A stretch of 64,000 nucleotides of DNA from Conexibacter sp. (GCA_025964325.1 JAOPZA010000174.1:3327-67326), one strand, 5' to 3'. Positions 8,632 to 55,313 are shown, numbered from the stretch's first letter. Translations and numbers: made by a program. The notes: a model not told the origin generated them from the sequence alone.

Positions 8632-8686
8632 TCCGGTCGAGCTTGCTCCGAGCTCGCGGCAGCGAACACCCGCAGGGCGTGAATAC

Positions 8687-8700
8687 CCCCCGATCGGGGG
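8687..8700. promoter_or_regulatory. Perfect 14-bp palindrome, candidate response-regulator operator
   Basis: CCCCCGATCGGGGG about 55 nt upstream of the Zn-ribbon/kinase/regulator operon. Confidence 0.45.
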
Positions 8701-8707
8701 TGAAGCC

Positions 8708-8825
8708 TCGCGCAGGGCGCTCGCCTTCACCTTGCGGGTATTCGCGCAGACGCGCAGAGCACGAAACCCGCGGTCGCCGCGCACCGACGTCGCCGGATGC
8801 AGCGTCGCGCAGGGCGCTCGCCTTC
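8708..8825 (+). repeat. Two copies of the 21-mer TCGCGCAGGGCGCTCGCCTTC (REP-like family)
   Basis: Identical at 8708-8728 and 8805-8825; reverse-complement copy at 11938-11958. Confidence 0.8.
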
Positions 8826-11913: not shown

Positions 11914-12002
11914 GCCGGAGGCGCTTCGCCGCGCCGCGAAGGCGAGCGCCCTGCGCGAGCGTTCGCAAGCGAAACAAGGGCTATGCCCGCGGTTTCGCCC
12001 GC
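11914..12002. repeat. Composite palindromic intergenic element overlapping the SDR 3' end
   Basis: GCGCTTCGCCGCGCCGCGAAGGCGAGCGCCCTGCGCGAGCGTTCGC...CCCGCGGTTTCGCCC; shares the 21-mer with 8708 and 8805, and motifs with 27085-27185. Confidence 0.65.
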
Positions 12003-19440: not shown

Positions 19441-19520
19441 CGCGGAGACCGCCGCGCCCGGAAAGGCGAGCCCCTGGGCGAGCGTTTCCAATGAAGCAAG
19501 GCCTTTGGCCGCAGCTTCAC
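19437..19520 (-). other. 27-aa relay ORF / palindromic insert joining the ATPase stop (GTGA) to the permease start (ATGA)
   Basis: 84 nt, open frame MKLRPKALLHWKRSPRGSPFRARRSPR*; contains hairpin GGAAAGGCGAGCCCCTGGGCGAGCGTTTCC. Confidence 0.45.
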
Positions 19521-20475
19521 CGCATCTCCCGTCCCGTCAGGTGCACGAAGACGTCCTCGAGGCTGCCCTCGAGCCGGCGCAGCTCGACGAGCGCGTGGCC
19601 GTCCGCCTCGGCGGCCGCGAGCGCGGCCGGGGCGAGCCGCTCGCCCCCGCCGTAGACGCGCACGCGCCAGCGGCCCTCGCCGGCCTCCGCCACGTCGACC
19701 TTCTCCGCTCCCGGGAGCGCCGCGAACGGCGCCTCCTGCGGTCGCCCGCCTTCGAGCACGACGTCGATGCCGGCCTCGGCCGGCAGCAGCGTGCGCAGCC
19801 CGCGCGGCGTGTCGAGCGCGATGATCTTGCCGTGATCGACGACCGCGATGCGGTCGCAGAGGCGGTCGGCCTCGACCATGTCGTGCGTCGTAGGAAGAGC
19901 GTCGTGCCGCGCTCGCGCAGGTCGAGCATCGTCTCCCACAGGAACAGCCGCGACTGCGGGTCCAGGCCCGTCGTCGGCTCGTCGAGGAACAGCACCTGCG
20001 GCTGGTGCATCAACGCGCGCGCGATCATCAGCCGCTGCGCCATCCCGCCGGAGTATCTGCCGACCTGCTCGTCCGCGCGATCGGCGAGCCCGAAGCGCGC
20101 GAGCAGCTCCATCGCGCGCTCGCGCCGCTCACGCCGGCCGGCGCCGAAGTAGGCGGCGTGGAAGGTCAGGTTCTCGATCGCGGTCAGCGAGCGGTCGAGG
20201 TTGCTGAGCTGCGGCACGACGGCGATCCTGCGCTTGATCTCGACGGGCTCGCGGCGCACGTCGTGGCCATCGACGATGACCTCGCCGGCGGTCGGCCGCA
20301 CGCGCGTCGTGATGACGCCGATCGTCGTCGTCTTGCCGGCGCCGTTCGGTCCCAGCAGTCCGAAGATCTCGCCCTCGCGCACGGCGAAGTCGATCCCGGC
20401 GACGGCGTCGGGGCCGTCGGCGCGGTAGCGCTTGCGCAGGCCCGCGACCTGCACGATCTCACGCTGCTCGGTCAT
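19517..20475 (-). pseudogene. ABC exporter ATP-binding protein split by an apparent 1-bp deletion
   Basis: GPNGAGKTT, YSGGM and LDEPT in one frame; THDMVEADRLCDRIA in another; junction CTC TTC CT_ ACG ACG CAC near 19892. Confidence 0.85.
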
Positions 20476-39443: not shown

Positions 39444-40436
39444 ATGCGCGAACCTCTCCTCGACGGGCACGGCCGGGCGATCGGGGACGTACGCGTCTCC
39501 GTGACCGACCGTTGCAACTTCCGCTGCCAGTACTGCATGCCGGCCGAGGGGCTGCCGTGGCTCGACCGCGCCGAGGTGCTGACGTTCGAGGAGATCGAGC
39601 GGATCGTCGCGTTGCTCGCGACGATGGGCGTCGGCGACGTGCGCCTGACGGGCGGCGAGCCGCTCGTGCGGCGCGACTTCCCGCGCCTGGCCGCGATGCT
39701 GGCGCAGATCGACGGCGTGGAGGATCTCTCGGTCACGACCAATGGCTTCCTGCTCGAGCGCGACGCGGCCGCCCTCGTCGCGGCCGGCGTCAACCGCTTC
39801 AACGTCTCGATCGACTCGCTCCAGCGCGATCGCTTCTTCGAGATGACGCGCCGCGACGCGCTTCCGCGCGTCCTCGCCGGCCTCGAGACGCTCGCGCAGT
39901 TCCCGGAGGCGCATCCGATCAAGGTCAACGCCGTCGCGCTGCGCGGCTTCACCGAGCAGGAGGCGATCCCGTTCGCCGAGTTCGCCCGCCAGCATCCGTA
40001 CGAGGTCCGCTTCATCGAGTTCATGCCGCTCGACGCCGACCACGCGTGGTCGCGCGACCAGGTCCTCAGCGGCGAGGAGATCCGCGCCGCGATCCACGCC
40101 GTCCACCCGCTCGAGCCGGAGCCGCGCGAGCCGAGCGCGACCGCGCGGGTCTACCGCTTCGCCGACGGCAACGGCCGGATCGGCTTCATCAACCCCGTCT
40201 CCGAACCGTTCTGCGGCGACTGCAACCGCATCCGCATCACGGCCGACGGCCACCTCCGGACCTGCCTCTTCAGCCACAATGAGACGGACCTCAGAGGCCC
40301 GCTGCGGGGCGGCGCGAGCGACGACGAGCTGGCAAGCGTGATCCGCGACGCCGTCTGGCGCAAGGAGCTCAAGCACCACGTCAACGACCCCGGCTTCATC
40401 CAGCCGACGCGGTCGATGAGCGCGATCGGCGGCTGA
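39444..40436 (+). CDS. moaA: GTP 3',8-cyclase
   Basis: RVSVTDRCNFRCQYC, FCGDCNRIRITADG..RTCLF, MSAIGG C-terminus. Confidence 0.97.
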   Translation: MREPLLDGHGRAIGDVRVSVTDRCNFRCQYCMPAEGLPWLDRAEVLTFEEIERIVALLATMGVGDVRLTGGEPLVRRDFPRLAAMLAQIDGVEDLSVTTNGFLLERDAAALVAAGVNRFNVSIDSLQRDRFFEMTRRDALPRVLAGLETLAQFPEAHPIKVNAVALRGFTEQEAIPFAEFARQHPYEVRFIEFMPLDADHAWSRDQVLSGEEIRAAIHAVHPLEPEPREPSATARVYRFADGNGRIGFINPVSEPFCGDCNRIRITADGHLRTCLFSHNETDLRGPLRGGASDDELASVIRDAVWRKELKHHVNDPGFIQPTRSMSAIGG

Positions 40437-40443
40437 GCGCCGC

Positions 40444-41220
40444 TCAGCGACGCGCCTGGCCGCCCGCGAGCCCGCACTCGTAGGCGAAGATCACGGCCTG
40501 CACGCGGTCGCGCAGCTCGAGCTTCGTCAGCACGCGCCCGACGTGCGTCTTGACGGTCGCCTCGGTGACGACGAGCCGTGCGGCGATCTCGGCGTTCGAG
40601 CGCCCCGCCGCGACCTCCAGCAGCACCTCGTGCTCGCGCTCGGTGAGCCGCGCGACGCGCTCGTCGGCGACGGGCTCGGCGGCCGCGCCGGCGGCGCCGT
40701 CCTCCGGCAGCCGGTCCGCGTAGGCGTCGAGCAGACGCCGCGTCACGCTCGGCGCGACGACCGCGTCGCCGCTCGCGACCGCGCGGATCGCCGACAGCAG
40801 GTCGCTCGGCGGGACGTCCTTCAGCAGGAAGCCGCTCGCGCCCGCGCGCAGTCCGCTGAAGGCGTAGGCGTCGAGGTCGAACGTCGTCAGGATCAGGACG
40901 CGCGGGCCGTCGGCCGTCTGGGCGATCTGGCGCGTCGCCTCGATCCCGTCGGTGCCGGGCATCCGCACGTCCATCAGCACGACGTCGGGCGCGAGCTCGA
41001 CGGTCAGCCGCATCGCCTCGGCCCCGTCGCCGGCCTCGCCGACGACGGTCATGTCGTCGTGCGCGTCGATCACCATGCGGAAGCCGAGCCGCAGCAGCGG
41101 CTGGTCGTCGACGAGCAGCACGCGGATGCTCGCGGAACCGCTCGGCCTGGGGCCTCGGGTTCCGTTCGAGAACTCGCCAGAGGCTCGTTCCCGAGGTGGT
41201 GGCGGGTCGTTTGCGCTCAT
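40444..41220 (-). CDS. NarL-family response regulator with a repeat-derived N-terminal extension
   Basis: VLLVDDQ, VLMDVRMP, FLLKD, TVKTHVGRVLTKL; ATG overlaps the kinase stop (ATGA). Confidence 0.92.
   Translation of the reverse strand: MSANDPPPPRERASGEFSNGTRGPRPSGSASIRVLLVDDQPLLRLGFRMVIDAHDDMTVVGEAGDGAEAMRLTVELAPDVVLMDVRMPGTDGIEATRQIAQTADGPRVLILTTFDLDAYAFSGLRAGASGFLLKDVPPSDLLSAIRAVASGDAVVAPSVTRRLLDAYADRLPEDGAAGAAAEPVADERVARLTEREHEVLLEVAAGRSNAEIAARLVVTEATVKTHVGRVLTKLELRDRVQAVIFAYECGLAGGQARR
41131..41196. mobile_element. About 66-bp palindromic element in frame in the response regulator N-terminus
   Basis: Aligns with the reverse complement of 53768-53846 (CGCGG...CTCGGCC.GGGGCCTCGGG.TTCCG...GAACTCGCC...GGCTCGTTC...CCGAGG). 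Confidence 0.7.
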
Positions 41221-42374
41221 GCCGCCGCCTGGTCCAGCGAAATCTCGAGCCGCGTGCGCACGCGCCAGCCACCCCCGGGCCGTGGCCCCGCCTCGACCGC
41301 GCCGGCGTAGACGGCGGCGCGCTCACGCATCCCGTCGAGCCCCTGGCCGCCGGCGTTCGCGCTCGCCCCGCCGGCGCCCGTGTCGGAGACCTCGAGCTCG
41401 ACGCCCGCGTCGTCGTAGCGCAGCGCGATCGCGGCGGTGGCACCGGGTCCGGCGTGCTTGAGCGTGTTCGTCAGCGCCTCCTGGATCAGGCGGAAGACGG
41501 TCAGCTGCGCGGCCGGCGGGAGCCTGCCCGCAGCCCCCTCGACCACCAGCGTGACCGGCAGCCCGGCGGCGCGCACCTGGTCGAGCAGCTCCGGCACGTC
41601 GTCGGTCCCCGGCTGCGGCGCACGCTGCGCGTCGGCGCCCTCGCGCAGCACGCCGAGCAGCCGACGCATGTCCGCCAGCGCCTGCCGGCCGGTCGCCGCC
41701 GACAGCTCCATCGCGCGCGTCGCCTGCGCGGGGTCGCTGCGCGCGGCGAACGCGGCGCCGTCGGCGAGCGCGGTCATGACGGAGAGGTTGTGGGCGACGA
41801 TGTCGTGCATCTCGCGCGCGATCCGGGCGCGCTCGGCGGCGGCGGCGATCTGGCCCTGCTGGTCGCGCTCGTGCTCGAGCCGCGCGGCGCGCTCCTCGAG
41901 CGTGCGCAGGTAGGCGCGGCGGATCTGCACGCTGCGGCCGAGCGCCACGGCCGCGATCACCATGCCGGTGAGGAAGACGGCGCCGGCGAGCGGATCCGCG
42001 CCGCCCCAACGTTCGACGGCGATCGCGACGCCCAGCTCGAGCGCGGCGGCGGCCGCCAGCGCCCGCCGGCGCGACTCGGTCGCCGCGACGGTGTAGAGCG
42101 CGACCAGCAGCGCGAGGTCGGCCCACATCGGCCGTCCCGTCAGCCACTGGGCGAACGCCACGAGCGCGATCACGGCGAAGACGGCGGTGGGGCTGCGACG
42201 CCGCGCCAGCAGCGGCAGCGTCAGCAGCGGCGCCCACAGCCACTCGACCGGGCGCCGCGATCCGCGGGCGGTGACGTCCGCGGTCGCGATCGCGAGCAGC
42301 CCGAGTGCGAGCAGCAGATCGACCGCCACGGGATGGCGGTCGATCAACGTCCGGACGTGACCTTCGTTGCGCAT
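41217..42374 (-). CDS. Membrane sensor histidine kinase (HisKA_3)
   Basis: TM helices, RIAREMHDIVAH, QEALTNTLKHAG, GQGLDGMRER. Confidence 0.93.
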   Translation of the reverse strand: MRNEGHVRTLIDRHPVAVDLLLALGLLAIATADVTARGSRRPVEWLWAPLLTLPLLARRRSPTAVFAVIALVAFAQWLTGRPMWADLALLVALYTVAATESRRRALAAAAALELGVAIAVERWGGADPLAGAVFLTGMVIAAVALGRSVQIRRAYLRTLEERAARLEHERDQQGQIAAAAERARIAREMHDIVAHNLSVMTALADGAAFAARSDPAQATRAMELSAATGRQALADMRRLLGVLREGADAQRAPQPGTDDVPELLDQVRAAGLPVTLVVEGAAGRLPPAAQLTVFRLIQEALTNTLKHAGPGATAAIALRYDDAGVELEVSDTGAGGASANAGGQGLDGMRERAAVYAGAVEAGPRPGGGWRVRTRLEISLDQAAA

Positions 42375-42390
42375 GCCCTTCAGGTCGATA

Positions 42391-43227
42391 TCACACGTCG
42401 CGTCGCCGGAACATAAATGCCGCCGCCGCGACGGTCACCGCGGTGTAGCCGCAGAAGAGCGCGAAGCCCGCCCACGGCGCCAGCGTGTGCGCCTCCGGCA
42501 CCGCCTGGGTGATCGCCGTCCCGGCGCTCGAGGGCAGGTACGGGCGGATCGACTGCCCGATGCTGCTGGGCAGGATCGAGACGATCCCGGGCAGCACGAA
42601 CAGCAGCCCGACGAACGCCGAGATGCCGCCGGCGCTGTTGCGCACGAGCGAGCCGATCGCGACGCAGAGGACGCCGAGCACGGTCAGGAACAGCGCGGTG
42701 CCGACCACCGCGCGGAGCGCGTGCGGCGCCCCGAGGCCGACGTTCACGTGATGCGAGGTCAGGATCGCCTGCGAGCCGAGGAACGCGACGAGCGAGGAGA
42801 CGAGCATCAGCACGAACGTGACGGTCGCGAAGACCCCGATCTTGGCCCACAGCACGGGCAGCCGTCGCGGCACCGCCATCACGCTCGAGCGGATCATCCC
42901 GGTCGAGTACTCGCCGCTGATGATCAGCACCCCCAGCACGCCGATCGCCAGCTGCGCGAGGTTGACGCCGCCGAGGCTCGTGTCGATCGGCTTGAAGTCG
43001 AGGCGGTCCTGCAGCGTCAGGTGCGACCAGCGGCTCATCTGGACGGCGGCGATCAGGACGCCGAGCCCCGCCATCGCGACGACGGCGGCGAGCAGCGACC
43101 AGCGCGTCGAGCGCAGCGACCAGAGCTTCGTCCACTCGGCGTGCAGGACGCGGGCCTGCGTGACGCGACCGCGCGGGATCGCACGGACCCGGTCGGCGGC
43201 GGAGGGATCTGCGGCGGTGGCGCTCAT
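42391..43227 (-). CDS. ABC-2 exporter permease
   Basis: AEWTKLWSLRST, GEYSTGMIRSS..AVPRR, six TM segments. Confidence 0.92.
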   Translation of the reverse strand: MSATAADPSAADRVRAIPRGRVTQARVLHAEWTKLWSLRSTRWSLLAAVVAMAGLGVLIAAVQMSRWSHLTLQDRLDFKPIDTSLGGVNLAQLAIGVLGVLIISGEYSTGMIRSSVMAVPRRLPVLWAKIGVFATVTFVLMLVSSLVAFLGSQAILTSHHVNVGLGAPHALRAVVGTALFLTVLGVLCVAIGSLVRNSAGGISAFVGLLFVLPGIVSILPSSIGQSIRPYLPSSAGTAITQAVPEAHTLAPWAGFALFCGYTAVTVAAAAFMFRRRDV

Positions 43228-44180
43228 GCGACGGCTCCCAGCTCGGCAACGGACGCGTCGGCCGGGTCGGCCGTCGCGCTGGCGTGATATTCGACAGCGT
43301 CATGCGTGAGGTGCATGAAGGCGTCCTCGAGCGAGACCTGCAGCGGCGTCAGCTCGTGCAGCACGATGCCGCCGGCGCTCGCCGCCTCACCGATCCGCTC
43401 GGCGCTCAGCCCGCGCACCTCGAGCACGCCGCGCTCCTCGCTCGCGATCGCGACGCCCTCGTCGGCGAGCGCCTCGGCCAGCGCGGTCGCCTGCGGCGAG
43501 CGCACCCGCACGGGCGCGTCGGCGGAGGCGCGGCCGACGAACTCGGCGACCGTCGTGTCCGCGATCAGCCGGCCGCGGCCGACGACGACGAGGTGCTCGG
43601 CCGTCTGCGCCATCTCGCTCATCAGGTGCGAGGAGAGGAACACGGTGCGGCCCTCGCTCGCGAGCCGCTTCAGCAGCGTGCGGATCCAGCGGATCCCCTC
43701 CGGGTCGAGGCCGTTGACGGGCTCGTCGAGGATCACCGTCTCGGGGTCGCCGAGCAGCGCGGCGGCGATCCCGAGACGCTGGCCCATGCCGAGCGAGAAG
43801 CCGCCGACGCGCTTGCGGGCGACCTCGCCGAGGCCGACGAGCTCGATCACCTCGTCGACGCGGGTGCGCGGCAGCCCGTGCGTCTGCGCAAGCGCGAGCA
43901 GATGGTGGTAGCCGGAGCGGCCGGTGTGGATCGCGCGCGCCTCGAGCATCGCGCCGACCTCGTTCAACGGCGCGTCGAACTCGCGGTAGGCCTTGCCGTT
44001 GATCGTGGCCGATCCCGACGTCGGCGCGTCGAGGCCGAGGATCAGCCGCATCGTGGTGGACTTGCCCGCCCCGTTGGGTCCGAGGAAGCCGGTCACGATG
44101 CCCGCTGGGACGGCGAAGCTGAGGTCGTCGACGGCGACCTTCTCGCCATAGCGTTTGGTCACGTTGCGGACTTGGATCAT
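43224..44180 (-). CDS. ABC exporter ATP-binding protein
   Basis: GPNGAGKSTT, FSLGMGQRL, LDEPVNGLDP, SSHLMSE. Confidence 0.95.
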   Translation of the reverse strand: MIQVRNVTKRYGEKVAVDDLSFAVPAGIVTGFLGPNGAGKSTTMRLILGLDAPTSGSATINGKAYREFDAPLNEVGAMLEARAIHTGRSGYHHLLALAQTHGLPRTRVDEVIELVGLGEVARKRVGGFSLGMGQRLGIAAALLGDPETVILDEPVNGLDPEGIRWIRTLLKRLASEGRTVFLSSHLMSEMAQTAEHLVVVGRGRLIADTTVAEFVGRASADAPVRVRSPQATALAEALADEGVAIASEERGVLEVRGLSAERIGEAASAGGIVLHELTPLQVSLEDAFMHLTHDAVEYHASATADPADASVAELGAVA

Positions 44181-44247
44181 GCCCTCAACGTACGACGAGC
44201 GGGCCTGCGCCACAACGGTCGCAAGGACGATCTTCGGGCCCCGTTCC

Positions 44248-44289
44248 CGTACGCCGCGAGGCGGACGCGCGTCCGCCTCAGGTCGTACG
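44248..44289. promoter_or_regulatory. 42-bp imperfect palindrome (22-bp perfect core) upstream of the ABC/TCS operon
   Basis: CGTACG...GAGGCGGACGCGCGTCCGCCTC...CGTACG. Confidence 0.5.
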
Positions 44290-44292
44290 CGG

Positions 44293-45318
44293 CTATCTGA
44301 GCGCCGCCTCGACCGCCTGCTTGAACTCCTCGATCCCGAAGGCGCCCTGCAGCCGTGCGGCGATCCTCCCCTGCCGGTCGATCGTGAAGAGCCACGGCTC
44401 GGTCGTCAGGTGGAAGGCCTGCAGCTGCGGCCGCAGCCCCTTGTTCGGATCGTTCTCGACGTACACCTCGTTGTGGATGAAGTCGACGCGGTCGCCGTAG
44501 GCGGCCTGCAGCTGGGCGGCGATGTCGGTCACCGGGCCGCAGACGCGCGACTGGCACAGCGCGGGCGTCGCGAACAGCAGCGCGACCGGCTTTCTGCCGA
44601 GCACGTCCTTCAGGCTGACCTCGTGCATCTGGTCGGGCGGGTCGCGCGTGTCGATCTTCGAGACCTGGCGCCCGACGGAGGCGAGCGTCGGCGTGTCGAT
44701 CCGCGGCGCCCGATCGCCGACGGCGGGGATCGGGCTGGTCTGCGTGACCTTGAGCTGGGCGGTGCCGCCGAGCAGCTTCGAGCCGACCTTGGTGACGGTC
44801 AGCACGTACCACGGCCCGACGCGCGGAAGCCGCACGTCGGTGTGGTAGATCGCCTGCACGTCGCCGGTGTCGGCGGCGCTGGTGCGGCTGCGGAAGGCGG
44901 GCCGCACCTGGAGCGAGTCGGCCGGCGCCAGGAACGGGCCCTGCGCCGGCTTCGTCGGGGAGCTCGCGACGAAGACCGCGGTCTTGCCGTAGACGAAGGC
45001 GCCCGCGGCGTCGATCACGCCGAACGCGAGCCGATTCGTCCCGGGCGTGTAGACCGACGTCGCGAGCCCGACCTGCGGGCCTGCCTGCAGCTTGTCGGCG
45101 ATCTGCTGCAGCGTGCGCCCGTCCGCGCGCGGGAAGTCGCCGGCGGCGGGGCTCTGCGCGGACGCGATCTGCGGCGAGGCGGGCGCCGGCTTCGCGTTCG
45201 GAGAGGAGGCGCCGCCGCCGGAGCCACCGGACCCGCCGCACCCGGCGAGCAGCGCGGCCAGCAGCAGCGCGGCACAGGCGGCGGCTCGTGGGACGCGTGA
45301 GCGGAGAGGGAGCATCAT
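44293..45318 (-). CDS. Lipoprotein with a C-terminal thioredoxin-like domain
   Basis: LLAGC lipobox; LLFATPALCQSRVCGP, FIHNEVY, EPWLFTID. Confidence 0.75.
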   Translation of the reverse strand: MMLPLRSRVPRAAACAALLLAALLAGCGGSGGSGGGASSPNAKPAPASPQIASAQSPAAGDFPRADGRTLQQIADKLQAGPQVGLATSVYTPGTNRLAFGVIDAAGAFVYGKTAVFVASSPTKPAQGPFLAPADSLQVRPAFRSRTSAADTGDVQAIYHTDVRLPRVGPWYVLTVTKVGSKLLGGTAQLKVTQTSPIPAVGDRAPRIDTPTLASVGRQVSKIDTRDPPDQMHEVSLKDVLGRKPVALLFATPALCQSRVCGPVTDIAAQLQAAYGDRVDFIHNEVYVENDPNKGLRPQLQAFHLTTEPWLFTIDRQGRIAARLQGAFGIEEFKQAVEAALR

Positions 45319-45357
45319 GATCAGAGGAGACGCCGCGGAGCGCTCGATCTTCCCACG

Positions 45358-45966
45358 CTAGCGATCCTCTCGCTCGTGGCGGTCGATCAGGCCCGCGGCG
45401 GTCAGCAGGTCCTCCGGCGCGTTGACGTTGAAGAACGGGCGCGCGTCGGCGAGCTCGAGCACCCGCGGGGCCAGCGCGGCGACGATCGCGGTGAGCGGCT
45501 TGGGCGGCTGCTGCTCGAGCGCGGCGCTCAGCTGCGCCCGCGCCTGCGGCAGGTAGAGCGCGAACAGCGGCTGCAACCGGCCGCCGGCGCGCGGGACGAT
45601 CGCGACCGCGCCGGCCGCGCCGGCTCCCGCGACGACGCGAGCCAGCTTCGCGCTGACGAACGGCAGGTCGCCGGCGCAGGCGAACACCGGGCGGGTGCCG
45701 GCCAGCTCGAGCGCGCGCACGATCCCGGCGAGCGGATGCCGCGGCTCGTCGTGCTCGATCCAGATCGTCACGCCCGGCAAGGCCGGCAGATCGGTGTCGG
45801 CCTTGGCGACGACGGCGACGTCCGCGAAGGCGCCGCGCATCGCGGCGACGGGATAGTCGATCAGCGGCCGGCCGTTGAGGCCGACAGTCGCCTTGTTGCC
45901 GCCCATCCGCCGGCCGATCCCGCCCGCCAGCACCGCGCCGATCGGCGCTTCGGTGTCGACCGTCAT
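45358..45966 (-). CDS. mobA: Molybdenum cofactor guanylyltransferase
   Basis: AVLAGGIGRRMGGNKA, HPLAGI, CAGDLPF, FFNVNAPEDL. Confidence 0.9.
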   Translation of the reverse strand: MTVDTEAPIGAVLAGGIGRRMGGNKATVGLNGRPLIDYPVAAMRGAFADVAVVAKADTDLPALPGVTIWIEHDEPRHPLAGIVRALELAGTRPVFACAGDLPFVSAKLARVVAGAGAAGAVAIVPRAGGRLQPLFALYLPQARAQLSAALEQQPPKPLTAIVAALAPRVLELADARPFFNVNAPEDLLTAAGLIDRHEREDR

Positions 45967-46046
45967 GGGGCGCGATGAGTCACGAGATCGCTCCTCGGAG
46001 CCGGGCGCAGGGTCCCGCCGCTGCAGGCAGCATAGAATCCCCGTTC

Positions 46047-46613
46047 ATGGAGGGCTCCACCGAGACAGTCCGCAGCTGGTTGCGCTGCTATCGCTGCTGG
46101 TCGCAGAACCTCGAGGTGCAGGTGCACTACGAGGGGATCCACCGCATCGATCCGGCGACCGGCGAGCGCGCCGAGGTCGTCGACGAGATGCAGGAGGCGG
46201 TCGTGCAGTGCCTCGACTGCATGCACGACCAGCCGCACCTGGGCTTCCACAACGGCCGCGTCGAGCCGATCGAGGACCGCTGGGAGCGGATGGTCGCCGG
46301 CACTCCCTGGGTCGCCTCCTGCACCGTCACGGTCGAGGCCGACGACGTCGAGACCTGCTCCGGCCCGGAGGCCGGCGACGCACTCTCCTACGCCGCCTTC
46401 GGCGACCACGGCACGCGCGAGTTCTTCACCCACGTGCGCTTCCACAAGCACGAGGACGACCAGATCGTCGTCCACCTGCTGGTCGAGCTCTACGCGCGCT
46501 CGAGCGAGGAGGCGACCGACGTGCTGGAGACCGCCGCCCGCGGCTCGCTGACGATCACCTCGCTCGCCGAGGAGTCGCGCCCGCCCGCCTCGACCGGCGA
46601 CGACCGCCACTGA
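46047..46613 (+). CDS. Hypothetical protein with an N-terminal Zn-ribbon
   Basis: CYRC...CLDC; TAGAAT 8 nt upstream of ATG. Confidence 0.75.
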   Translation: MEGSTETVRSWLRCYRCWSQNLEVQVHYEGIHRIDPATGERAEVVDEMQEAVVQCLDCMHDQPHLGFHNGRVEPIEDRWERMVAGTPWVASCTVTVEADDVETCSGPEAGDALSYAAFGDHGTREFFTHVRFHKHEDDQIVVHLLVELYARSSEEATDVLETAARGSLTITSLAEESRPPASTGDDRH

Positions 46614-46676
46614 GCGGTCGGGCGGACGTTCGCGCCCGCCCGCCTCGACCGGCGACGACCGCCACTGAGCGGTCGG
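46575..46676 (+). repeat. Perfect 47-bp direct repeat duplicating the gene 3' end
   Basis: TCGCGCCCGCCCGCCTCGACCGGCGACGACCGCCACTGAGCGGTCGG at 46575-46621 and 46630-46676. Confidence 0.9.
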
Positions 46677-46724
46677 CCCGCCCGCGCCGCAGCGGCGCAG
46701 GCGGGACCACTCAGGACCGACGCC

Positions 46725-48536
<1,812 letters not shown>

Positions 48537-48550
48537 GTGATCTCCTCCGG

Positions 48551-49099
48551 TCATGCGACGTTGCCCTCCGCGCCGTTCGCGCTCACGCCAGGCGTCTTGC
48601 GGGGGACCAGGACGAGGCGCTTGAACTCCGCGACCAGCACGCCGTCCTGGTTCAGCACGCGCGTGTGGACCTTCACGACCCCGCGATCGAGCTTCGACTT
48701 CGACGGCTTGACGTCGAGCACCTCGGTCTCGCAGAAGAGGGTGTCCCCGTGGAAGACCGGATTCGGGTGGCTCAGCTCCTCGGTCGCGAGGTTCGCGATC
48801 GCCTTGCCGGAGATGTCCGAGACCGACATCCCGAGCGCGAGCGAGTAGACGAGCGGGCCGACGACGACGTTGCGGCCCTGCTGCGACCCGGCCGCGTAGA
48901 CGTCGTTCAGGTGCAGCGGGTGGTGGTTCATCGTGATGAGGCAGAAGAGGTGGTCGTCGGACTCGGTGACCGTCTTCGCGGGCCAGTGCTTGTAGACCGC
49001 GCCGACTTCGAACTCCTCCAGATAGCGGCCGTACGGGTGGGCGCCCGAGGCCTCGCGTGCCGCCTGGTCGGTTTCGACTCCTTGGGTGGTTTCGCTCAT
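48551..49099 (-). CDS. MaoC-family dehydratase (candidate mesaconyl-CoA hydratase)
   Basis: [27 protein letters not shown]. Confidence 0.85.
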
Positions 49100-49249
49100 G
49101 GGGTAGCTGGACCGTCCTGATTTCGCCGGGAGAAAGATGAGAAGTGTGACGTTTCCGCGTCGCGGATGCGTAGTTCCATAGTGAGTGCATCGGCGCGAGG
49201 GGGTCGCGGTCTACGATTCGCCGGCCCAGACCCAAGGAGATCCCAGCTC

Positions 49250-50311
49250 GTGCGCAATCCCCGTGACTTCGGAAAGCCCCTCGCCGTCGGTGCTCCCGAA
49301 CCGCTCCTCGACGTCCCGTTCAAGCCCTCGCGGATGATCCACTTCCTCGACGCGAGCAACGACAAGATGGTCGCGAAAGTTCCCGACATCGCACGCAAGA
49401 CCGACATCCTGCTCGGCAATCTCGAGGACGCCGTACCGGTCGATCGCAAGGAGGCGGCGCGCGAGGGGCTGATCAGAGTCGGGCGCGAGTTCGACCTCGG
49501 AGAGACGCAGCTGTGGACGCGCGTCAACAGCCTCGACAGCCCGTGGGTGCTCGACGACCTGCTGCGGCTCGTCGGCGAGATCGGCGACAGACTCGACGTG
49601 ATCATGGTGCCGAAGGTCGAGGGCGCCTGGGACATCCACTACGTCGACCGCCTGCTCGCACAGCTGGAGGCCAAGCACGGCGTGCAGAAGCCGATCCTCG
49701 TGCACGCGATCCTCGAGACCTCGCTCGGCGTCGCGAACCTGGAGGAGATCGCCGCCGCGAGTCCGCGCATGCAGGGCATGAGCTTCGGTCCGGCCGACCT
49801 CGCCGCCTCGCGCCGGATGAAGACGACGCGCGTCGGCGGCGGTCATCCGGGCTACGTCGTGATCGCCGATCCGAGCGAGGACGGCGGCCCGCGCGCGACC
49901 GCGCAGCAGGACCTCTGGCACTACTCGATCGGCCGCATGGTCGACGCCTGCACGGCGACCGGGATCCTGCCCTTCTACGGCCCCTTCGGCGACATCTCCG
50001 ACGACCTCGGCTGCGAGGCGCAGTTCCGCGCCGCGTTCCTGATGGGCTGCGTCGGCGCCTGGTCGCTGCACCCGCGACAGATCGAGATCGCCAAGCGCGT
50101 CTTCAGCCCCGATCCCGACGAGGTCAGATTCGCCAAGCGCGTGATCGAGGCGATCCCCGACGGGCGAGGCGTTCACATGCTCGACGGCAAGATGCAGGAC
50201 GATGCGACCTGGAAGCAGTGCCAGGTGATGGTCCACCTCGCGGAGCTGCTGGCGCAGAAGGATCCCGAGCTGGCCGAGGCCTACGGGTTCGTCACCACGA
50301 CAGGGAGCTGA
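49250..50311 (+). CDS. mcl: Malyl-CoA/beta-methylmalyl-CoA lyase (CitE/HpcH superfamily)
   Basis: [60 protein letters not shown]. Confidence 0.88.
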
Positions 50312-50313
50312 GC

Positions 50314-51522
50314 GTGCGTTTCTTCGAGTACGAGTCGCGGCAGATCGTCGCGAAGGCCGGCATCCCGGTCTCCAGACACGGCTTCGCCACCACCCCGGAG
50401 GAGGCGCGGCGGATCGCCGAGGAGATCGCCGGCCCCGTCGTGATCAAGTCGCAGGTGCTGACCGGCGGCCGCATGAAGGCCGGCGGCGTGAAGTTCGCCG
50501 ACACGCCCGACGAGGCGGCCGAGCACGCCGCGTTCGTCCTGCAGCTGGAGATCAACGGCCACATGCCGCGGGGCGTACTGGTCGACTCGCGCGTGTCGGT
50601 CAAGCAGGAGTACTACGCCGGCGTCGTCTGGGACGGGATCCGCAAGCAGCCGGTGATGCTCTTCAGCGACATGGGCGGGATCGACATCGAGGAGGTCGCC
50701 GAGACCCATCCCGACCACGTCGGCCGCGGCTGGTTCTCGAACCTGACCGACGTCTCGGACTACCAGGCGAAGCAGGTGATCGCCTCGATCGGCGTGACCG
50801 GCGCCGCGCTGACGCGCGCCACGCCGATCCTCACGCGGCTCGCGCAGCTGTTCGTCGAGCGCGACATGACGCTCGCGGAGATCAACCCACTGGCGCAACT
50901 CGAGGACGGCTCGTTCGTCGCCGTCGACGCGCACATGGACATGGAGAACGAGGCCCGCCCACGCCAGAAGCAGCTCCTGAAGGAGCTCGGCGTCGGCGAC
51001 GAGGAGACGCGCCAGGCGCGCGAGGCGACCCCGTTCGAGCTCGCCGGCGAGGCCGTCGACGCGGCGTCGCACCGCGGCGTCGCCGGCAACGTGACGGAGT
51101 TCGACGGCAACCTCGGGCTCGTGATCGGCGCCGGCGGCGGCTCGCTGACGCTCTTCGACGCGGTCCGCGCTCATGGCGGCAAGCCCGCCAACTACTGCGA
51201 GATCGGCGGCAACCCGTCGGTCGAGAAGGCGTGCGGCCTGGCGAAGCTCGTGCTGCAGAAGCCGGGCGTCGACAAGATCGCGGTGATGATGTCGATCGTC
51301 TCCAACACGCGCGTCGACATCGTCGCGCGCGGCGTCATCAAGGCGTGCGTGGAGCTGGGCTACGACCCGGGCGAGAAGATCGCGATCTTCCGCATCCCGG
51401 GCGCCTGGGAGGACGAGGGCTTCAAGATCCTCGAGAGATACGGAGTCGAGTACTGCGACCGCTCCGTCTCGATGCACGAGGCTGCGCGCCGCGCCGTCGA
51501 GAAGATCGGAGTGGCCGCCTGA
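50314..51522 (+). CDS. ADP-forming acyl-CoA ligase, ATP-grasp (beta) subunit, SucC-like but divergent
   Basis: FEYESRQI, KSQVLTGGRMKAGGV, EINPL; IGAGGGSLTLFD where SucC has NGAGLAMATMD. Confidence 0.85.
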   Translation: MRFFEYESRQIVAKAGIPVSRHGFATTPEEARRIAEEIAGPVVIKSQVLTGGRMKAGGVKFADTPDEAAEHAAFVLQLEINGHMPRGVLVDSRVSVKQEYYAGVVWDGIRKQPVMLFSDMGGIDIEEVAETHPDHVGRGWFSNLTDVSDYQAKQVIASIGVTGAALTRATPILTRLAQLFVERDMTLAEINPLAQLEDGSFVAVDAHMDMENEARPRQKQLLKELGVGDEETRQAREATPFELAGEAVDAASHRGVAGNVTEFDGNLGLVIGAGGGSLTLFDAVRAHGGKPANYCEIGGNPSVEKACGLAKLVLQKPGVDKIAVMMSIVSNTRVDIVARGVIKACVELGYDPGEKIAIFRIPGAWEDEGFKILERYGVEYCDRSVSMHEAARRAVEKIGVAA

Positions 51523-52445
51523 TGTCGATCCTGATCGATGCGACGACGACCTTCATCGTCCAGGGCATCACCGGCCGCGAGGCCGTCAACCTGACCCGCG
51601 AGTGCCTCGACTACGGCGAGGGCGCGCGCGTCGTCGGCGGCGTGACGCCGGGCCGCAAGGGCCGCGAGGTCCACGGCGTACCCGTCTTCGACACCGTCGC
51701 GCAGGCCGTCGAGCACCACGGCGGGCCGATCGACGGCTCGGTCGTGACGGTGCCGCCGGCCTTCACGAAGGACGCGGTGCTGGAGGCGATCGCGAACGGC
51801 GTCAAGCTCGTCGTGATCGTGACCGAGCGGATCCCGCGACGCGACGTCGCCGTGATGGTCGAGTTCGCCAGGCAGCACGACGCGCGCATCATCGGGCCCA
51901 ACTGCCTCGGCATCATCGTGCCCGACGTGATCAAGATGGGCGGCATCGGCGGCCCGGCGAGAGACGCGGCGAAGGCGTACACGCCGGGGCCGGTGGGCGT
52001 CATCTCGCGCTCCGGCGGCATGACGACCGAGATGTCCTCGACGCTGAGCGCCGCCGGCCTCGGCCAGTCGACGGCCGTCTCGATCGGCGGCGACGCCATC
52101 ATCGGCTCGTCCTACGCGGAGCTGATGCCGCTGTTCGAGGCCGACGAGCAGACGCAGGCGATCGTGATCTACACCGAGCCGGGCGGCCGCATGGAGGCCG
52201 AGCTGGCCGCGTGGGTCACCGAGCACGACTCTCGCCTGCCGATCGTCGCGTTCATGGCGGGCCGCTTCATGGACGAGATGCCGGGCATGAGCTTCGGCCA
52301 CGCCGGCACGATCGTCGAGGGCAAGGCCGACACGGCCGCGGAGAAGATCGCGCGCCTCGCCGAGGCCGGCATCGTCGTCGCGGAGGAGATCTCGCAGATC
52401 CCGGAGATCGTCAAGAGCAAGATCGCCGAGAGGAGTGCCGTCTGA
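51522..52445 (+). CDS. ADP-forming acyl-CoA ligase, CoA-binding (alpha) subunit, SucD-like
   Basis: IVQGITG, VGGVTPGRKG, IIGPNCLGII, SRSGGMT, FGHAG phospho-His motif. Confidence 0.9.
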   Translation: MSILIDATTTFIVQGITGREAVNLTRECLDYGEGARVVGGVTPGRKGREVHGVPVFDTVAQAVEHHGGPIDGSVVTVPPAFTKDAVLEAIANGVKLVVIVTERIPRRDVAVMVEFARQHDARIIGPNCLGIIVPDVIKMGGIGGPARDAAKAYTPGPVGVISRSGGMTTEMSSTLSAAGLGQSTAVSIGGDAIIGSSYAELMPLFEADEQTQAIVIYTEPGGRMEAELAAWVTEHDSRLPIVAFMAGRFMDEMPGMSFGHAGTIVEGKADTAAEKIARLAEAGIVVAEEISQIPEIVKSKIAERSAV

Positions 52446-52687
52446 TGCCCGCGCTGTTCATCAACGTCGAGGTCGACGAGCAGGTCGCGCAGGATCCCGC
52501 GCTGGCAGCGAAGCTGACCGAGGTCTGCCCCGTCGACATCTACGCGCAGAAGGGCGACGGGACGCTCGCGATCGTCGAGGAGAACCTCGACGAGTGCGTC
52601 CTCTGCCGCCTCTGCATCGACGCGGCGCCGCACGGCAGCGTGCGCGTCGTGAAGCTCTACGAGGACGGATCGGTCCTGCAGTCCTGA
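52445..52687 (+). CDS. Ferredoxin (FixX-like), probably one [4Fe-4S] cluster
   Basis: EVCPVDIY...DECVLCRLCIDAAP; ATG overlaps the upstream TGA. Confidence 0.85.
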   Translation: MPALFINVEVDEQVAQDPALAAKLTEVCPVDIYAQKGDGTLAIVEENLDECVLCRLCIDAAPHGSVRVVKLYEDGSVLQS

Positions 52688-52779
52688 GCGGCGACCGGCT
52701 TCGCGGCGACCGGCTTCGCGGCGACCGGCTTCGCCGGTCACTTGGGAGTTCGCCTGGCGGCGAACTCCCGGGAGTGACC
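52688..52779. repeat. 3 x 15-bp tandem repeat followed by an 11-bp TGGC-loop hairpin with GGGAGTTC/GAACTCCC ends
   Basis: (GCGGCGACCGGCTTC)x3 at 52688-52732; GGGAGTTCGCC-TGGC-GGCGAACTCCC at 52744-52769. Confidence 0.85.
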
Positions 52780-53760
52780 GATCAACTGCGCCGCGGGTCG
52801 CTCCTGCACGAGCGGCCCGTAGGCGTCCGGGCGACGGGTCGTGAGGAACGGAAAGAGCGTCAGCCAGTCGCCGCGCTGGTCGAGGTCGAGATCGGCGACC
52901 AGCACGGCGGACCGATCGCGCGGCGCCTGGGCGAGCACACGGCCATACGGATCGGAGATGAACGACGAGCCGTAGAAGCGCAGCGGCCCCTCCTCCCCGA
53001 TGCGGTTGACGGCGACCATGAAGGTGCCGTTCGCGATCCCGTTGGCGACGATCACCTTCTCCCACAGTGGCTCGGTGTCGAAGTCGGGATGGTCGGGCTC
53101 GGAGCCGATCGCGGTCGGGTAGACGATCACCTCGGCGCCGGCGAGCGAGTAGGCCCGCGCGAGCTCCGGGAACCACTGGTCCCAGCAGGTCGGGAAGCCG
53201 AGCCGCGCATCGCCGAGACCGACGACGGGGAACGCGTCGACGGCGGGGCCGGCCGGGCCCGGACGGAAGTATCTGTCCTCGTAGTAGCCGGCCGTGACCG
53301 GGATGTGGACCTTCCGCGTGCGCGCGATGAGCGTTCCGTCGGGCGCCGCGACGATCGCCGTGTTGAAGCCGCGCGCATCCCCGTCCTCCTCGGCCGCACG
53401 CTCGTACAGCGACGCGTGCACGTGGACGCCGGTCGCGGCCGCCATCCGCTGCGCGAAGCGCGTCGTCGGACCGTCGGGGATCGCCTCCGCCATCGCCTGC
53501 GCCTCGCCGAGCGCGTCGGGCGTGATCGCGAAGTACGGCGAGAGCGTCAGCTCCTGGAGGCAGACGAGCCGGGCGCCGCGACCGGCCGCGAGCTCGATCC
53601 CCTCCCCCAGCGACGCCTCGTGCTCGGCCGCGTCGGCATGCCAGCGCTGCTGCACGAGGGCGATGCGGAAGGGTGCGCGCCTCGCCGTCGTCTCGTCCGC
53701 GCGCGCGAGCGAGCGTGGCACGCCGCCGGTCGCCTCGATCAGCTCAAAACGCGCGGTCAT
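52738..53760 (-). CDS. aguB: N-carbamoylputrescine amidase-like nitrilase (CN hydrolase)
   Basis: Catalytic E (LQEL), K (TRKVHIP), C (PTCWDQWFPE), YPTAIGSEP; follows agmatine deiminase. Confidence 0.85.
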   Translation of the reverse strand: MTARFELIEATGGVPRSLARADETTARRAPFRIALVQQRWHADAAEHEASLGEGIELAAGRGARLVCLQELTLSPYFAITPDALGEAQAMAEAIPDGPTTRFAQRMAAATGVHVHASLYERAAEEDGDARGFNTAIVAAPDGTLIARTRKVHIPVTAGYYEDRYFRPGPAGPAVDAFPVVGLGDARLGFPTCWDQWFPELARAYSLAGAEVIVYPTAIGSEPDHPDFDTEPLWEKVIVANGIANGTFMVAVNRIGEEGPLRFYGSSFISDPYGRVLAQAPRDRSAVLVADLDLDQRGDWLTLFPFLTTRRPDAYGPLVQERPAAQLIGHSREFAARRTPK

Positions 53761-54851
53761 CGAACGTCCTCGGAGTTGGAAGAACGAGCCGCGGGGGCGA
53801 GTTCTTCCGACGGAACCCCGAGGCCCCCGGCCGAGGGGCTCCGCGGAATCTGCTGCGTGATGCAGTGCACGCCGCCGCCGCCGAGCGCCAGCACGCGTCC
53901 GGGGACGCCGACGATCTCGCGACCGGGCAGGAGTCTTCCGAGCCGTGTGAGCGCCTCCTCGTCCATGTCGTGGTCGAGCTGGGCGAGCGGGACGATCGCG
54001 GCGCCGTTGCAGAGGTAGAAGTTCGTGTAGGGGACCGCGACCGTCTCGCCCTCGTCGCGCCGGCTGCGCGGCAGCAGCTCGAGCTCGACGACGTCGAGCC
54101 CCGCGGCGCGCAGCCGGCGGAGGTTCTCCTCGGCGGCCGGGCGGTTCGGGTCGTCGTCGTCGGCGACGGTCTGCAGGAGGACGCGCCCGGGCGCGAGGAA
54201 GGCGCAGATGTTGTCGACGTGGCCGTCGGTGTCGGCGTCCTCGACGAGTCCCTTCCCGAGCCAGACGATCCTCTCGGCGCCGAGCTGGCCGCGCAGCTCC
54301 TCCTCGATGTCCTCGCGGTTGAGGAGCGGATTGCGGTTCGGGTTCAGCAGGCACTGCTCCGTCGTCACGAGCGTGCCCTCGCCGTCGACGGCGATCGCGC
54401 CGCCCTCGAGCACGAGCGGCGAGGCGAAGCGCTCGATCCCGAGCCGCTCGAGCAGCAGCCGCGCGATCGCGGCGTCGTGGTCGTAGGGCGTGAAGGCCTC
54501 GCCCCAGGCGTTGAAGCGGAAGTCGATGCCGGCACGGGCACCCTCCGGCCCGGTCACGACGATCGGTCCCGAGTCGCGCAGCCACGAGTCGTCGATCGGC
54601 AGCGCGACGACCTCGACGTTCTCCGACGGGACGCGGCGGCGCGCGTCCTCGGCGTGCGCGGGGTCGGCGACGAGCAGGACCGGCTCGAAGGCGGCGACCG
54701 CCGCGACGACGGCGGCGTGCTCGTCACGGGCCTCCTCGATCGTCGCTCCGCGCCAGGCCTCCTGCCGCGCCGGCCAGGCCATCAGCGTCCGTTCGTGCGG
54801 CGCCCACTCGGCCGGCATCCGCAGGCCGGCGGCGCGTTCGCTCGTGCTCAT
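53757..54851 (-). CDS. aguA: Agmatine deiminase
   Basis: MPAEWAPH, DSWLRDSGP, LEGGAI..DGEGT, DTDGHVDN, GGGVHCITQQIP, then a ~27-aa repeat-derived tail. Confidence 0.93.
   Translation of the reverse strand: MSTSERAAGLRMPAEWAPHERTLMAWPARQEAWRGATIEEARDEHAAVVAAVAAFEPVLLVADPAHAEDARRRVPSENVEVVALPIDDSWLRDSGPIVVTGPEGARAGIDFRFNAWGEAFTPYDHDAAIARLLLERLGIERFASPLVLEGGAIAVDGEGTLVTTEQCLLNPNRNPLLNREDIEEELRGQLGAERIVWLGKGLVEDADTDGHVDNICAFLAPGRVLLQTVADDDDPNRPAAEENLRRLRAAGLDVVELELLPRSRRDEGETVAVPYTNFYLCNGAAIVPLAQLDHDMDEEALTRLGRLLPGREIVGVPGRVLALGGGGVHCITQQIPRSPSAGGLGVPSEELAPAARSSNSEDVR
53768..53846. mobile_element. About 79-bp palindromic element in frame in the agmatine deiminase C-terminus
   Basis: GTTGGAAGAAC...GTTCTTCCGAC hairpin; homologous to 41131-41196. 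Confidence 0.7.
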
Positions 54852-54938
54852 GATCGGCGAGCGTAGCGGGCGCACGTGCGCCTCGCCGCCGCTTCGCGGT
54901 CCCGCCGCCCACCGCGCGGCGGTGTGCGGCGTCCGCGG

Positions 54939-55313
54939 CTACCCGCGGGCGCGGCGTGTGCGGGAGCGCTCTTCCTGCTTCTCGACGACGTTGACGACGA
55001 GCTTGATGATCTGCTCGACGCCGGTCGCCTTCGCGTCGCCGTGCTCGAACGCCTCGCGCCACTGCTTGACGGTGCCGTTGACCGCGAGCTCATTGAAGTT
55101 CGCGCGCGGCACTTCGAGGCGGACGCGGGCATCCGACGCGATGTCCTTCGTGATGATCGGCCCGGGCAGCTCCACGCGGAACATCTGGATGTCGCCGCGG
55201 CCGCGCAGCTCCAGCCCGACGACGAGCTTGAGCGGCTCGAGCGCCGGCACCTCATGGAGGAACCGCCGTACGCCCTGCTCGATCAGCGCCTTGGTGTCCT
55301 TCGGGGTGCTCAG
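54939..55313 (-). CDS. Hypothetical protein (SCP2-like); start possibly CTG
   Basis: (L/M)STPKDTKALIEQGVRRFLHEVPAL...; TAGACT 7 nt upstream of CTG. Confidence 0.7.
   Translation of the reverse strand: MSTPKDTKALIEQGVRRFLHEVPALEPLKLVVGLELRGRGDIQMFRVELPGPIITKDIASDARVRLEVPRANFNELAVNGTVKQWREAFEHGDAKATGVEQIIKLVVNVVEKQEERSRTRRARG

Follow-up and report, generated by a model that had tools for sequence, protein, structure and literature searches.

MIRUs (mycobacterial interspersed repetitive units) are repeats of 40 to 100 bp that occur in mycobacterial operons at tens of copies per genome (Supply et al. 1997, via PMC12548453 and PMC3184786). In the passages of PMC12548453 and PMC3184786 that deal with them, the internal open reading frame (ORF) of a MIRU overlaps the flanking stop and start codons (-4 nucleotides [nt]), insertion at a start codon leaves expression intact, filled and empty sites are found between species along with tandem arrays, and the first example lay in a two-component operon; part of PMC3184786 also reports direct repeats of four nucleotides and internal inverted repeats rich in G+C. 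Rickettsia palindromic elements (RPEs), repeats of ~100 to 150 bp, lie in frame within protein genes in a manner compatible with function (Ogata et al. 2000, via a passage of PMC10969869), and repeat-derived 5' and 3' gene extensions are known in several bacteria (PMC10969869, PMC3184786). Here we describe a repeat family found in a stretch of Conexibacter sp. DNA (GCA_025964325.1, JAOPZA010000174.1:3327-67326), 64,000 nt in length and referred to as the window, in which one copy lies at the junction of a histidine kinase gene and a response regulator gene and another at the junction of the agmatine deiminase gene aguA and aguB. We consider it probable, at roughly three chances in four, that both stretches belong to one family of short interspersed repeats that sits at the stop/start overlaps of operons, keeps translational coupling, and adds tails to proteins. 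The family is undescribed and of a known kind, MIRU-like with RPE-like fusions; it is no new principle and changes nothing in principle.

As far as MIRUs are described in the passages cited above, the Conexibacter unit resembles them in length, copy number, position between co-directional genes, internal ORFs with -4-nt overlaps, filled and empty sites, and arrays, and its regulator copy likewise lies in a two-component operon. It differs in its occurrence in Thermoleophilia, in the dominance of two covarying hairpins, and in that many copies form tails joined to the upstream gene while a few lie antisense, in frame. Homology to the mycobacterial repeats was considered and rejected, since the family model had no matches in 41 Mycobacteriaceae genomes and 3 other actinobacteria, a set in which the presence of MIRU-bearing species is not certain. 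The unit would be a second, unrelated repeat built for stop/start overlaps, and it shares the solution of MIRUs: its length is a multiple of three, it is free of stops, it brings a Shine-Dalgarno sequence of its own, and translation through it ends in the RTGA (ATGA or GTGA) of the following gene. The literature searched holds no description of such a repeat in Conexibacter, and one paper notes unexplained false CRISPRs in C. woesei.

An earlier note on this DNA had proposed that the same element is translated in opposite orientations at the two junctions. Positions 41131-41196 aligned with the reverse complement of 53768-53846 over 65 columns, 54 of them identical (83%), with a local alignment score of 69. 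In ~4,900 controls, the score averaged 14.5 ± 2.5 with a maximum of 30 (2,905 random genomic 79-mers) and 16.5 ± 2.9 with a maximum of 33 (2,000 dinucleotide shuffles). The pair is absent from a general repeat search of the window because its copies differ by indels. When a family model was run genome-wide with nhmmer, the regulator and aguA sites were among the top matches (E = 4.5e-16 and 5.3e-13, respectively), and within the window cmsearch scored them at 77.5 bits (E = 3.3e-14) and 79.7 bits (E = 1.2e-14). The peptides that the note had quoted were recovered as well, the regulator beginning MSANDPPPPRERASGEFSNGTRGPRPSGSASIRVLLVDDQ and the deiminase ending HCITQQIPRSPSAGGLGVPSEELAPAARSSNSEDVR before its stop, and the stop and start coordinates (Table 1) confirmed that both frames are open and both ATGA overlaps intact. 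G+C content is high throughout the window, and the four genes at the two sites are all on the minus strand. At both sites, a tail of 16 to 19 nt runs beyond the hairpin core toward the ATGA.

The host is a Conexibacter-like actinobacterium (Solirubrobacterales) with an assembly of 4.34 Mb in 251 contigs and a G+C content of 72.6%. BLAST of either window copy against the whole assembly detected ~30 loci, nhmmer 50 copies at E < 1e-3, and a covariance model 66; the palindrome of the note is thus a real, dispersed element that forms hairpins. The unit measures ~85 nt. Two G+C-rich hairpins, GCGGAACCGCTCGGCC-loop-GGCCTCGGGTTCCG and GGAAGAACTCGCC-loop-GGCTCGTTCTTCC, make up its core of 69 nt, and after them comes a ~16-nt tail with GGAGG; the unit adjoins RTGAGC, in which a stop codon and a start codon overlap. 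A variant form is 3 nt shorter (CGAGAAC...GTTCTCG). RNAalifold returned 21 consensus pairs, 9 of them with compensatory changes on both sides, and column entropy was 0.34 at paired versus 0.79 at unpaired positions. In the usual reading frame, the entropies of the three codon positions were 0.51, 0.55, and 0.48, i.e., without codon periodicity. Because the paired columns are conserved and the codon positions vary alike, the conserved object is a nucleic-acid structure and not a peptide. That the unit is a module of proteins, a tag or motif (AEPLGLRPRVPSEELAQGARSS) on which selection acts at the protein level and which has been added to many enzymes, is scarcely credible, even though one and the same peptide forms the end of CarB, CobN, an amidase, a monooxygenase, and other proteins: the variation lacks a third-position excess, conservation tracks base pairs, AguA and the C140:14164, C68, and C10 proteins use other frames for half of the unit, and elsewhere this DNA forms a separate mini-ORF, lies antisense, or is part of non-coding arrays.

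The genomic context of the copies was analyzed with genes called by a codon-score caller self-trained on the long ORFs of the assembly (4,038 genes, 90% of the sequence); flanks were read directly, and the p values are binomial. Forty of 44 loci were co-oriented with their flanking genes (p = 9e-9). At least 32 of the 40 sense copies were followed by an RTGA start, typically 16 nt past the hairpins and with GGAGG (p = 1e-7), against a background in which 39% of called-gene starts have A next; the 16-nt spacing of the aguA copy to the next start recurs in ~15 other copies. The two orientations are thus not equivalent, which corrects the reading of the earlier note: the sense copy brings GGAGG and a start context, and antisense copies are rare. 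Among intergenic copies, the stop of the upstream gene falls at the 5' edge of the unit, and a start codon overlaps this stop in 14 of 16 (p = 1e-3); at least nine of them (C181, C109, C161, C108, C193, C164, C81, C54, and C74) hold a complete relay ORF of ~29 codons that runs from the edge start to a TGA in the RTGA of the next gene. Among read-through copies, the RTGA of the next gene is the exact end point of the upstream ORF in 16 of 18 cases, against an expectation of one-third (p = 2e-6). In several copies, a +1 indel in hairpin 1 is paired with a -1 indel in loop 2, which restores the frame into the RTGA, and in the aguA copy an extra G shifts reading from the upstream-gene frame into the frame that ends in ATGA.

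In the whole genome, 22% of co-directional neighbor genes overlap by 4 nt, and RTGAGC occurs 3,596 times, 490 of them at called starts, so that it is the start context of ~12% of called genes. Since RTGAGC is so common, target preference alone is insufficient to account for where the copies lie and how they point; copies that break coupling must also be selected against. The proposal that the element is kept only where coupling is preserved stands in part, as the copies overwhelmingly preserve the chain into the next RTGA; the word "only" is too strong, given arrays between genes (C216, C56), a copy in mid-protein (C189), and several copies without RTGA. That the element is open on both strands, another point of the note, is correct but not special. 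The unit is open in all six frames; a single frame of a random 87-mer of this genome is stop-free with a probability of 0.76, and all six are open in 16%. What is non-random is the length in threes together with the frame of entry and exit.

We propose that a sense unit between two operon genes would offer the upstream ribosome one of two routes. It may stop at the RTGA at the 5' edge and then translate a ~29-codon relay ORF through the unit, or, as in the aguA copy, the upstream gene may itself read through the unit; by either route translation would end in the RTGA of the next gene, and termination-reinitiation coupling would survive. The sense unit would also bring its own Shine-Dalgarno sequence (GGAGG) and start context. 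An antisense unit would be tolerated only as an in-frame, stop-free insert, such as the 87 nt right after the coupled ATGAGC of the regulator, where it would add 29 residues before the receiver domain.

Comparison with relatives bears on how the two window copies arose. The closest AguA relatives in the species collection are those of Conexibacter stalactiti and a Conexibacter sp., at 81% identity. In 18 orthologues, AguA ends 2 to 9 residues past HCITQQ[IV]P and the unit is absent from all; the aguA stop overlaps the aguB start in 6 of these 18 relatives, five times as ATGAGCGA and once as ATGAGGCC. The kinase-regulator pair was found in ten relatives (up to 80% identity), in which the regulator RTG overlaps the kinase stop, as RTGAGC in eight, and MSTRVLLVDDQ or a close variant follows; again none has the unit. 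The three closest regulators encode MSTRVLL or MTTSVLL, then (V/A)DDQ. Empty kinase-regulator sites read RTGAGC-ACGCG; the junction in the window reads ATGAGC, then 87 extra nt, then ATCCGCGTGCTG. Consistently, the family model had no matches at 35 orthologous loci, and the added peptides are missing from the orthologues, a check that the note had asked for. That the orthologous junctions are RTGA overlaps without the unit argues that both copies in the window are insertions specific to this lineage, made at ATGA junctions that are ancestral, the aguA copy just upstream of the overlap and in sense, the regulator copy just downstream and in antisense. A 16-nt similarity of the aguA tail to the native 3' end in one relative (CCGAGGACG) raised the idea that the aguA tail is native sequence; it was rejected as a general reading, since antisense copies carry the tail too.

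Table 1. Features at the two junctions of the window and further copies of the repeat within it
Feature	Coordinates	Strand	Remarks
NarL/LuxR-type response regulator	40444..41220	-	Pfam Response_reg and GerE
HisKA_3 histidine kinase	41217..42374	-	Upstream of the regulator; Pfam
ATGA overlap, kinase/regulator	41217..41220	-	Kinase TGA 41217-41219, regulator ATG 41218-41220
Hairpin core, regulator site	41130-41195	+	Refined coordinates
Element, regulator site	41132..41214	+	Two hairpins (to 41195) and 19-nt tail GTGGTGGCGGGTCGTTTGC; antisense to the genes; read on the minus strand as ANDPPPPRERASGEFSNGTRGPRPSGSA
GCTC, left copy of 4-nt direct repeat	41128..41131	+	Right copy 41215-41218; flanks the 83-nt insert
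Agmatine deiminase, aguA (PAD_porph)	53757..54875	-	Start uncertain (54875 or 54851)
AguA peptide			SPSAGGLGVPSEELAPAAR
N-carbamoylputrescine amidase-like CN hydrolase, aguB	52738..53760	-	Pfam CN_hydrolase
ATGA overlap, aguA/aguB	53757..53760	-	aguA stop 53757-53759, aguB ATG 53758-53760
Hairpin core, aguA site	53777-53846	-	70 nt, in sense; hairpin 1 has an additional G
Tail between hairpins and aguB start	53761..53776	-	16 nt, ACTCCGAGGACGTTCG; Shine-Dalgarno-like GAGGA within
More diverged copy	19459..19522	-	47 bits, E = 6e-8; sense, at a GTGA...ATGA gene junction, with relay ORF
More diverged copy	11935..12002	-	41 bits, E = 1e-6; 3' end of a gene, between convergent genes
Half-unit	8686-8731	+	Second hairpin only

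With respect to the proteins, the PAD_porph match of AguA ends at residue 344 (HCITQQIP), and residues 345 to 372 make up a 28-residue tail derived from the element. As there is no stop between the catalytic-site motif and the ATGA, AguA would necessarily gain this tail if the gene is expressed. In the regulator, the Response_reg match covers residues 34 to 146 (profile 1-111 of 111, Pfam), and of the 33 residues that precede the receiver domain, 29 (residues 3 to 31) come from the insert. This extension would be translated only if the coupled ATG is used, a start made plausible by an orthologous antisense copy in cheR. That copy lies at the N terminus of CheR, with the layout ATGAGC-tail-unit, in the host and in two further species. 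All three keep it in frame although the stretch ahead of the unit varies in length by -6 and +3 nt, and the CheR_N domain begins at residue 31 (Pfam).

The only other start candidate of the regulator is an internal GTG at 41121-41123 (MLLVDDQ), from which the unit would be an untranslated spacer between kinase and regulator. We hold this start to be doubtful. It is preferred by the codon-usage-based caller, the receiver-domain profile begins exactly at the GTG residue, and an in-frame, stop-free insert of 87 nt has a prior of ~1/3 x 0.76 (about 0.25). However, no Shine-Dalgarno sequence precedes the GTG, and the orthologues begin at the RTGA overlap, four residues upstream, with the GTG codon internal; the coupled ATG is thus the ancestral start, its ATGAGC overlap is intact, and the insert spans exactly 29 codons without a stop. 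The cheR copy, in frame despite its length changes in three species, is the strongest of the indirect arguments for the coupled ATG.

Further fusions bear out the suggestion that the element is a source of new protein termini. The C-terminal tail of MurC is a third antisense copy, and sense copies form the tails of CarB (1.8 units), the alpha subunit of a biotin-dependent acyl-CoA carboxylase, CobN, an amidase, a flavin monooxygenase, and an ABC ATPase; these identities were read from sequence, Pfam having been run, besides the window genes, on MurC and CheR only. Like the RPEs covered by the cited passage, the Conexibacter insertions are in frame, stop-free, and outside the folded core (regulator residues 3-31, AguA past residue 344, CheR, MurC, and a linker in the C189 protein). 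RPEs as described there often lie inside genes, whereas the Conexibacter copies are nearly all at ends or junctions and one is internal. This copy (C189:10977-11043) is an in-frame insert in a Gly-rich linker; the linker is in mid-protein, in a membrane protein of 825 residues that resembles family-39 glycosyltransferases, and the copy is the sole clearly internal insertion seen. For annotation, dozens of genes in Conexibacter and relatives may have repeat-derived termini or unannotated relay mini-ORFs, and start codons beside the repeat are easily miscalled. The copies also offer natural material for the study of termination-reinitiation coupling and of new termini on essential enzymes (CarB, MurC, acyl-CoA carboxylase).

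The note had called the element mobile, and the filled and empty sites, the patchy range, and the RTGAGC, or its reverse complement, that abuts the ends of units in either orientation point to spread by insertion. GAGC or RTGAGC is present on both sides of at least eight canonical copies. The regulator copy, an 83-nt antisense unit of hairpins and tail, has GCTC on both flanks, which may represent a target duplication; the arithmetic of this insert, 83 + 4 = 87 nt, gives its 29 codons. The GAGC and GCTC repeats would fit a 4-nt target duplication of the sort reported for MIRUs. The hairpins may be kept for spread, for a role at the mRNA level, or for both. As for the criteria for miniature inverted-repeat transposable elements, the unit has no capacity to code for a transposase, and its ends (GCGGAA... 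and ...TTCCG) are weakly inverted because of the two hairpins. The Chunjie element of Geobacter, in the passage of PMC10969869 that describes it, is comparable in being non-autonomous, in having filled and empty sites, and in being tolerated inside operons; it differs in its length of 178 to 235 bp and its clear terminal inverted and direct repeats, the ends and target duplication of the Conexibacter unit being unclear.

It is very unlikely that the unit is a REP/BIME-type element moved by RAYT or a remnant of IS200/IS605 with two end hairpins. Two hairpins, a position mostly outside genes, and the lack of clear long terminal inverted repeats would suit such an origin, and short G+C-rich extragenic hairpins transcribed within operons are a feature that the unit shares with REP/BIME elements. 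The unit is, however, longer, strongly oriented, and tied to start codons, and Y1_Tnp (PF01797) was unmatched in the host and in eight element-bearing congeners, including a complete 6.36-Mb genome, while control genomes were positive; Y1/RAYT was thus not found in nine genomes. Neisseria REP2, as far as PMC3184786 describes it, similarly has two internal stem-loops, a ribosome-binding site, and a start codon and is fused to downstream ORFs; it has a promoter and lies upstream of transcription units, whereas the Conexibacter unit lies inside operons after an upstream ORF.

Three loci, rplQ-truA, cheR, and a third junction, hold orthologous copies across species with alignable flanks, and some copies are evidently old. 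The hairpin-1 stems of the orthologous copies differ by compensatory changes (GATCC/GGATC, GACCC/GGGTC, and AACGC/GCGTT), which reflect either selection on structure or gene conversion from other copies. The copy between rplQ, which encodes ribosomal protein L17, and truA is present in three species (host C118:34847-34907, L130 in G008, and L136 in G018), and the G008 copy has acquired one more hairpin, its third, which is nested.

These copies bear on the possibility that the unit is chiefly a cis-acting RNA element of the host, acting in stability, processing, or protein binding to tune the ratios of cistrons, with the tails as a by-product. We regard this as possible, though clearly less probable than the reading given at the outset, and it is compatible with an origin as a mobile repeat. 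The strong orientation bias with transcription and the maintenance of stems by compensatory changes speak for it, as do the different yet self-complementary stems at orthologous rplQ-truA, cheR, and third-junction sites in three species and the invariant unpaired TC/TC positions and core CTCGCC...GGCTCG, which suggest sequence-specific recognition. On the other side, Rfam had no match; near-palindromic hairpins fold either way, yet antisense copies are rare, so that the tail with its Shine-Dalgarno sequence and start is a simpler cause of the bias; the operons of near relatives work without both window copies; the unit is patchy within the genus (9 of 25 genomes); and what looks like compensatory change at orthologous sites could stem from gene conversion between copies. 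A reading that joins both aspects, and one we rate as unlikely, is that of a mobile cassette that targets RTGAGC overlaps, is moved by a non-Y1 enzyme, and has had some copies, e.g., at rplQ-truA, co-opted as intercistronic RNA modules.

Several points weigh against a coupling-preserving repeat family that spreads by insertion. No transposase was found for the unit, so mobility, as the note asserted it, has the filled and empty sites in its favor but no enzyme, and gene conversion or recombination are alternatives for the spread; neither terminal repeats nor a target duplication is clear at the read-through copies. The orthologous copies point to a role of the structure at host level, and a purely selfish reading would not lead one to expect this. 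Exceptions to the junction rule include the arrays at C216 and C56 and the C189, C130, and C243 copies. The gene caller is crude, individual starts may be wrong, and its own choice for the regulator was the internal GTG; translation of the tails, relay ORFs, and regulator extension is predicted from the sequence. If the mobile-cassette reading is true, Conexibacter woesei would be a culturable system in which to test the movement and function of MIRU-type repeats; its strain DSM 14684 probably has at least 27 copies, those of cheR and rplQ-truA among them.

The range of the family is patchy. The family model was positive, beyond its 9 of 25 genomes in the genus, in 17 of 151 genomes and 7 of 51 genera across the host's family, and in none of 16 genomes from other families of the order. 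An exact-pattern scan of the contig collection returned two Conexibacter records only, a hint of taxonomic range, and two further genomes of the genus share the layout described for the host; one of these is complete, at 6,359,369 bp. The Rfam search, at E <= 1, covered window positions 40000-55000.

Structural variants of the unit were also observed. In a sub-family at C108, C115, C86, C131:14695, C42, C145:25174, and C130, an extra hairpin (GGAAGCC...GGCTTCC) is nested in loop 2 and adds ~30 nt to the unit. Truncated units form tandem arrays at C216:15209-15442, C56:816-935, C11:43001-43116, and C121:5710-5833, with a period of ~56 nt (48 nt in C11); the C216 array holds four to five units between two genes of opposite orientation, outside any operon junction. 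The unit's initial 15 nt (GCGGAACCGCTCGGC) form in-frame tandem runs of two to three repeats at C140:19750-19795, C142:18520-18554, C109:400-421, and C11:42960-43001, and these micro-repeats encode (A/V)EPLG peptide repeats in protein tails.

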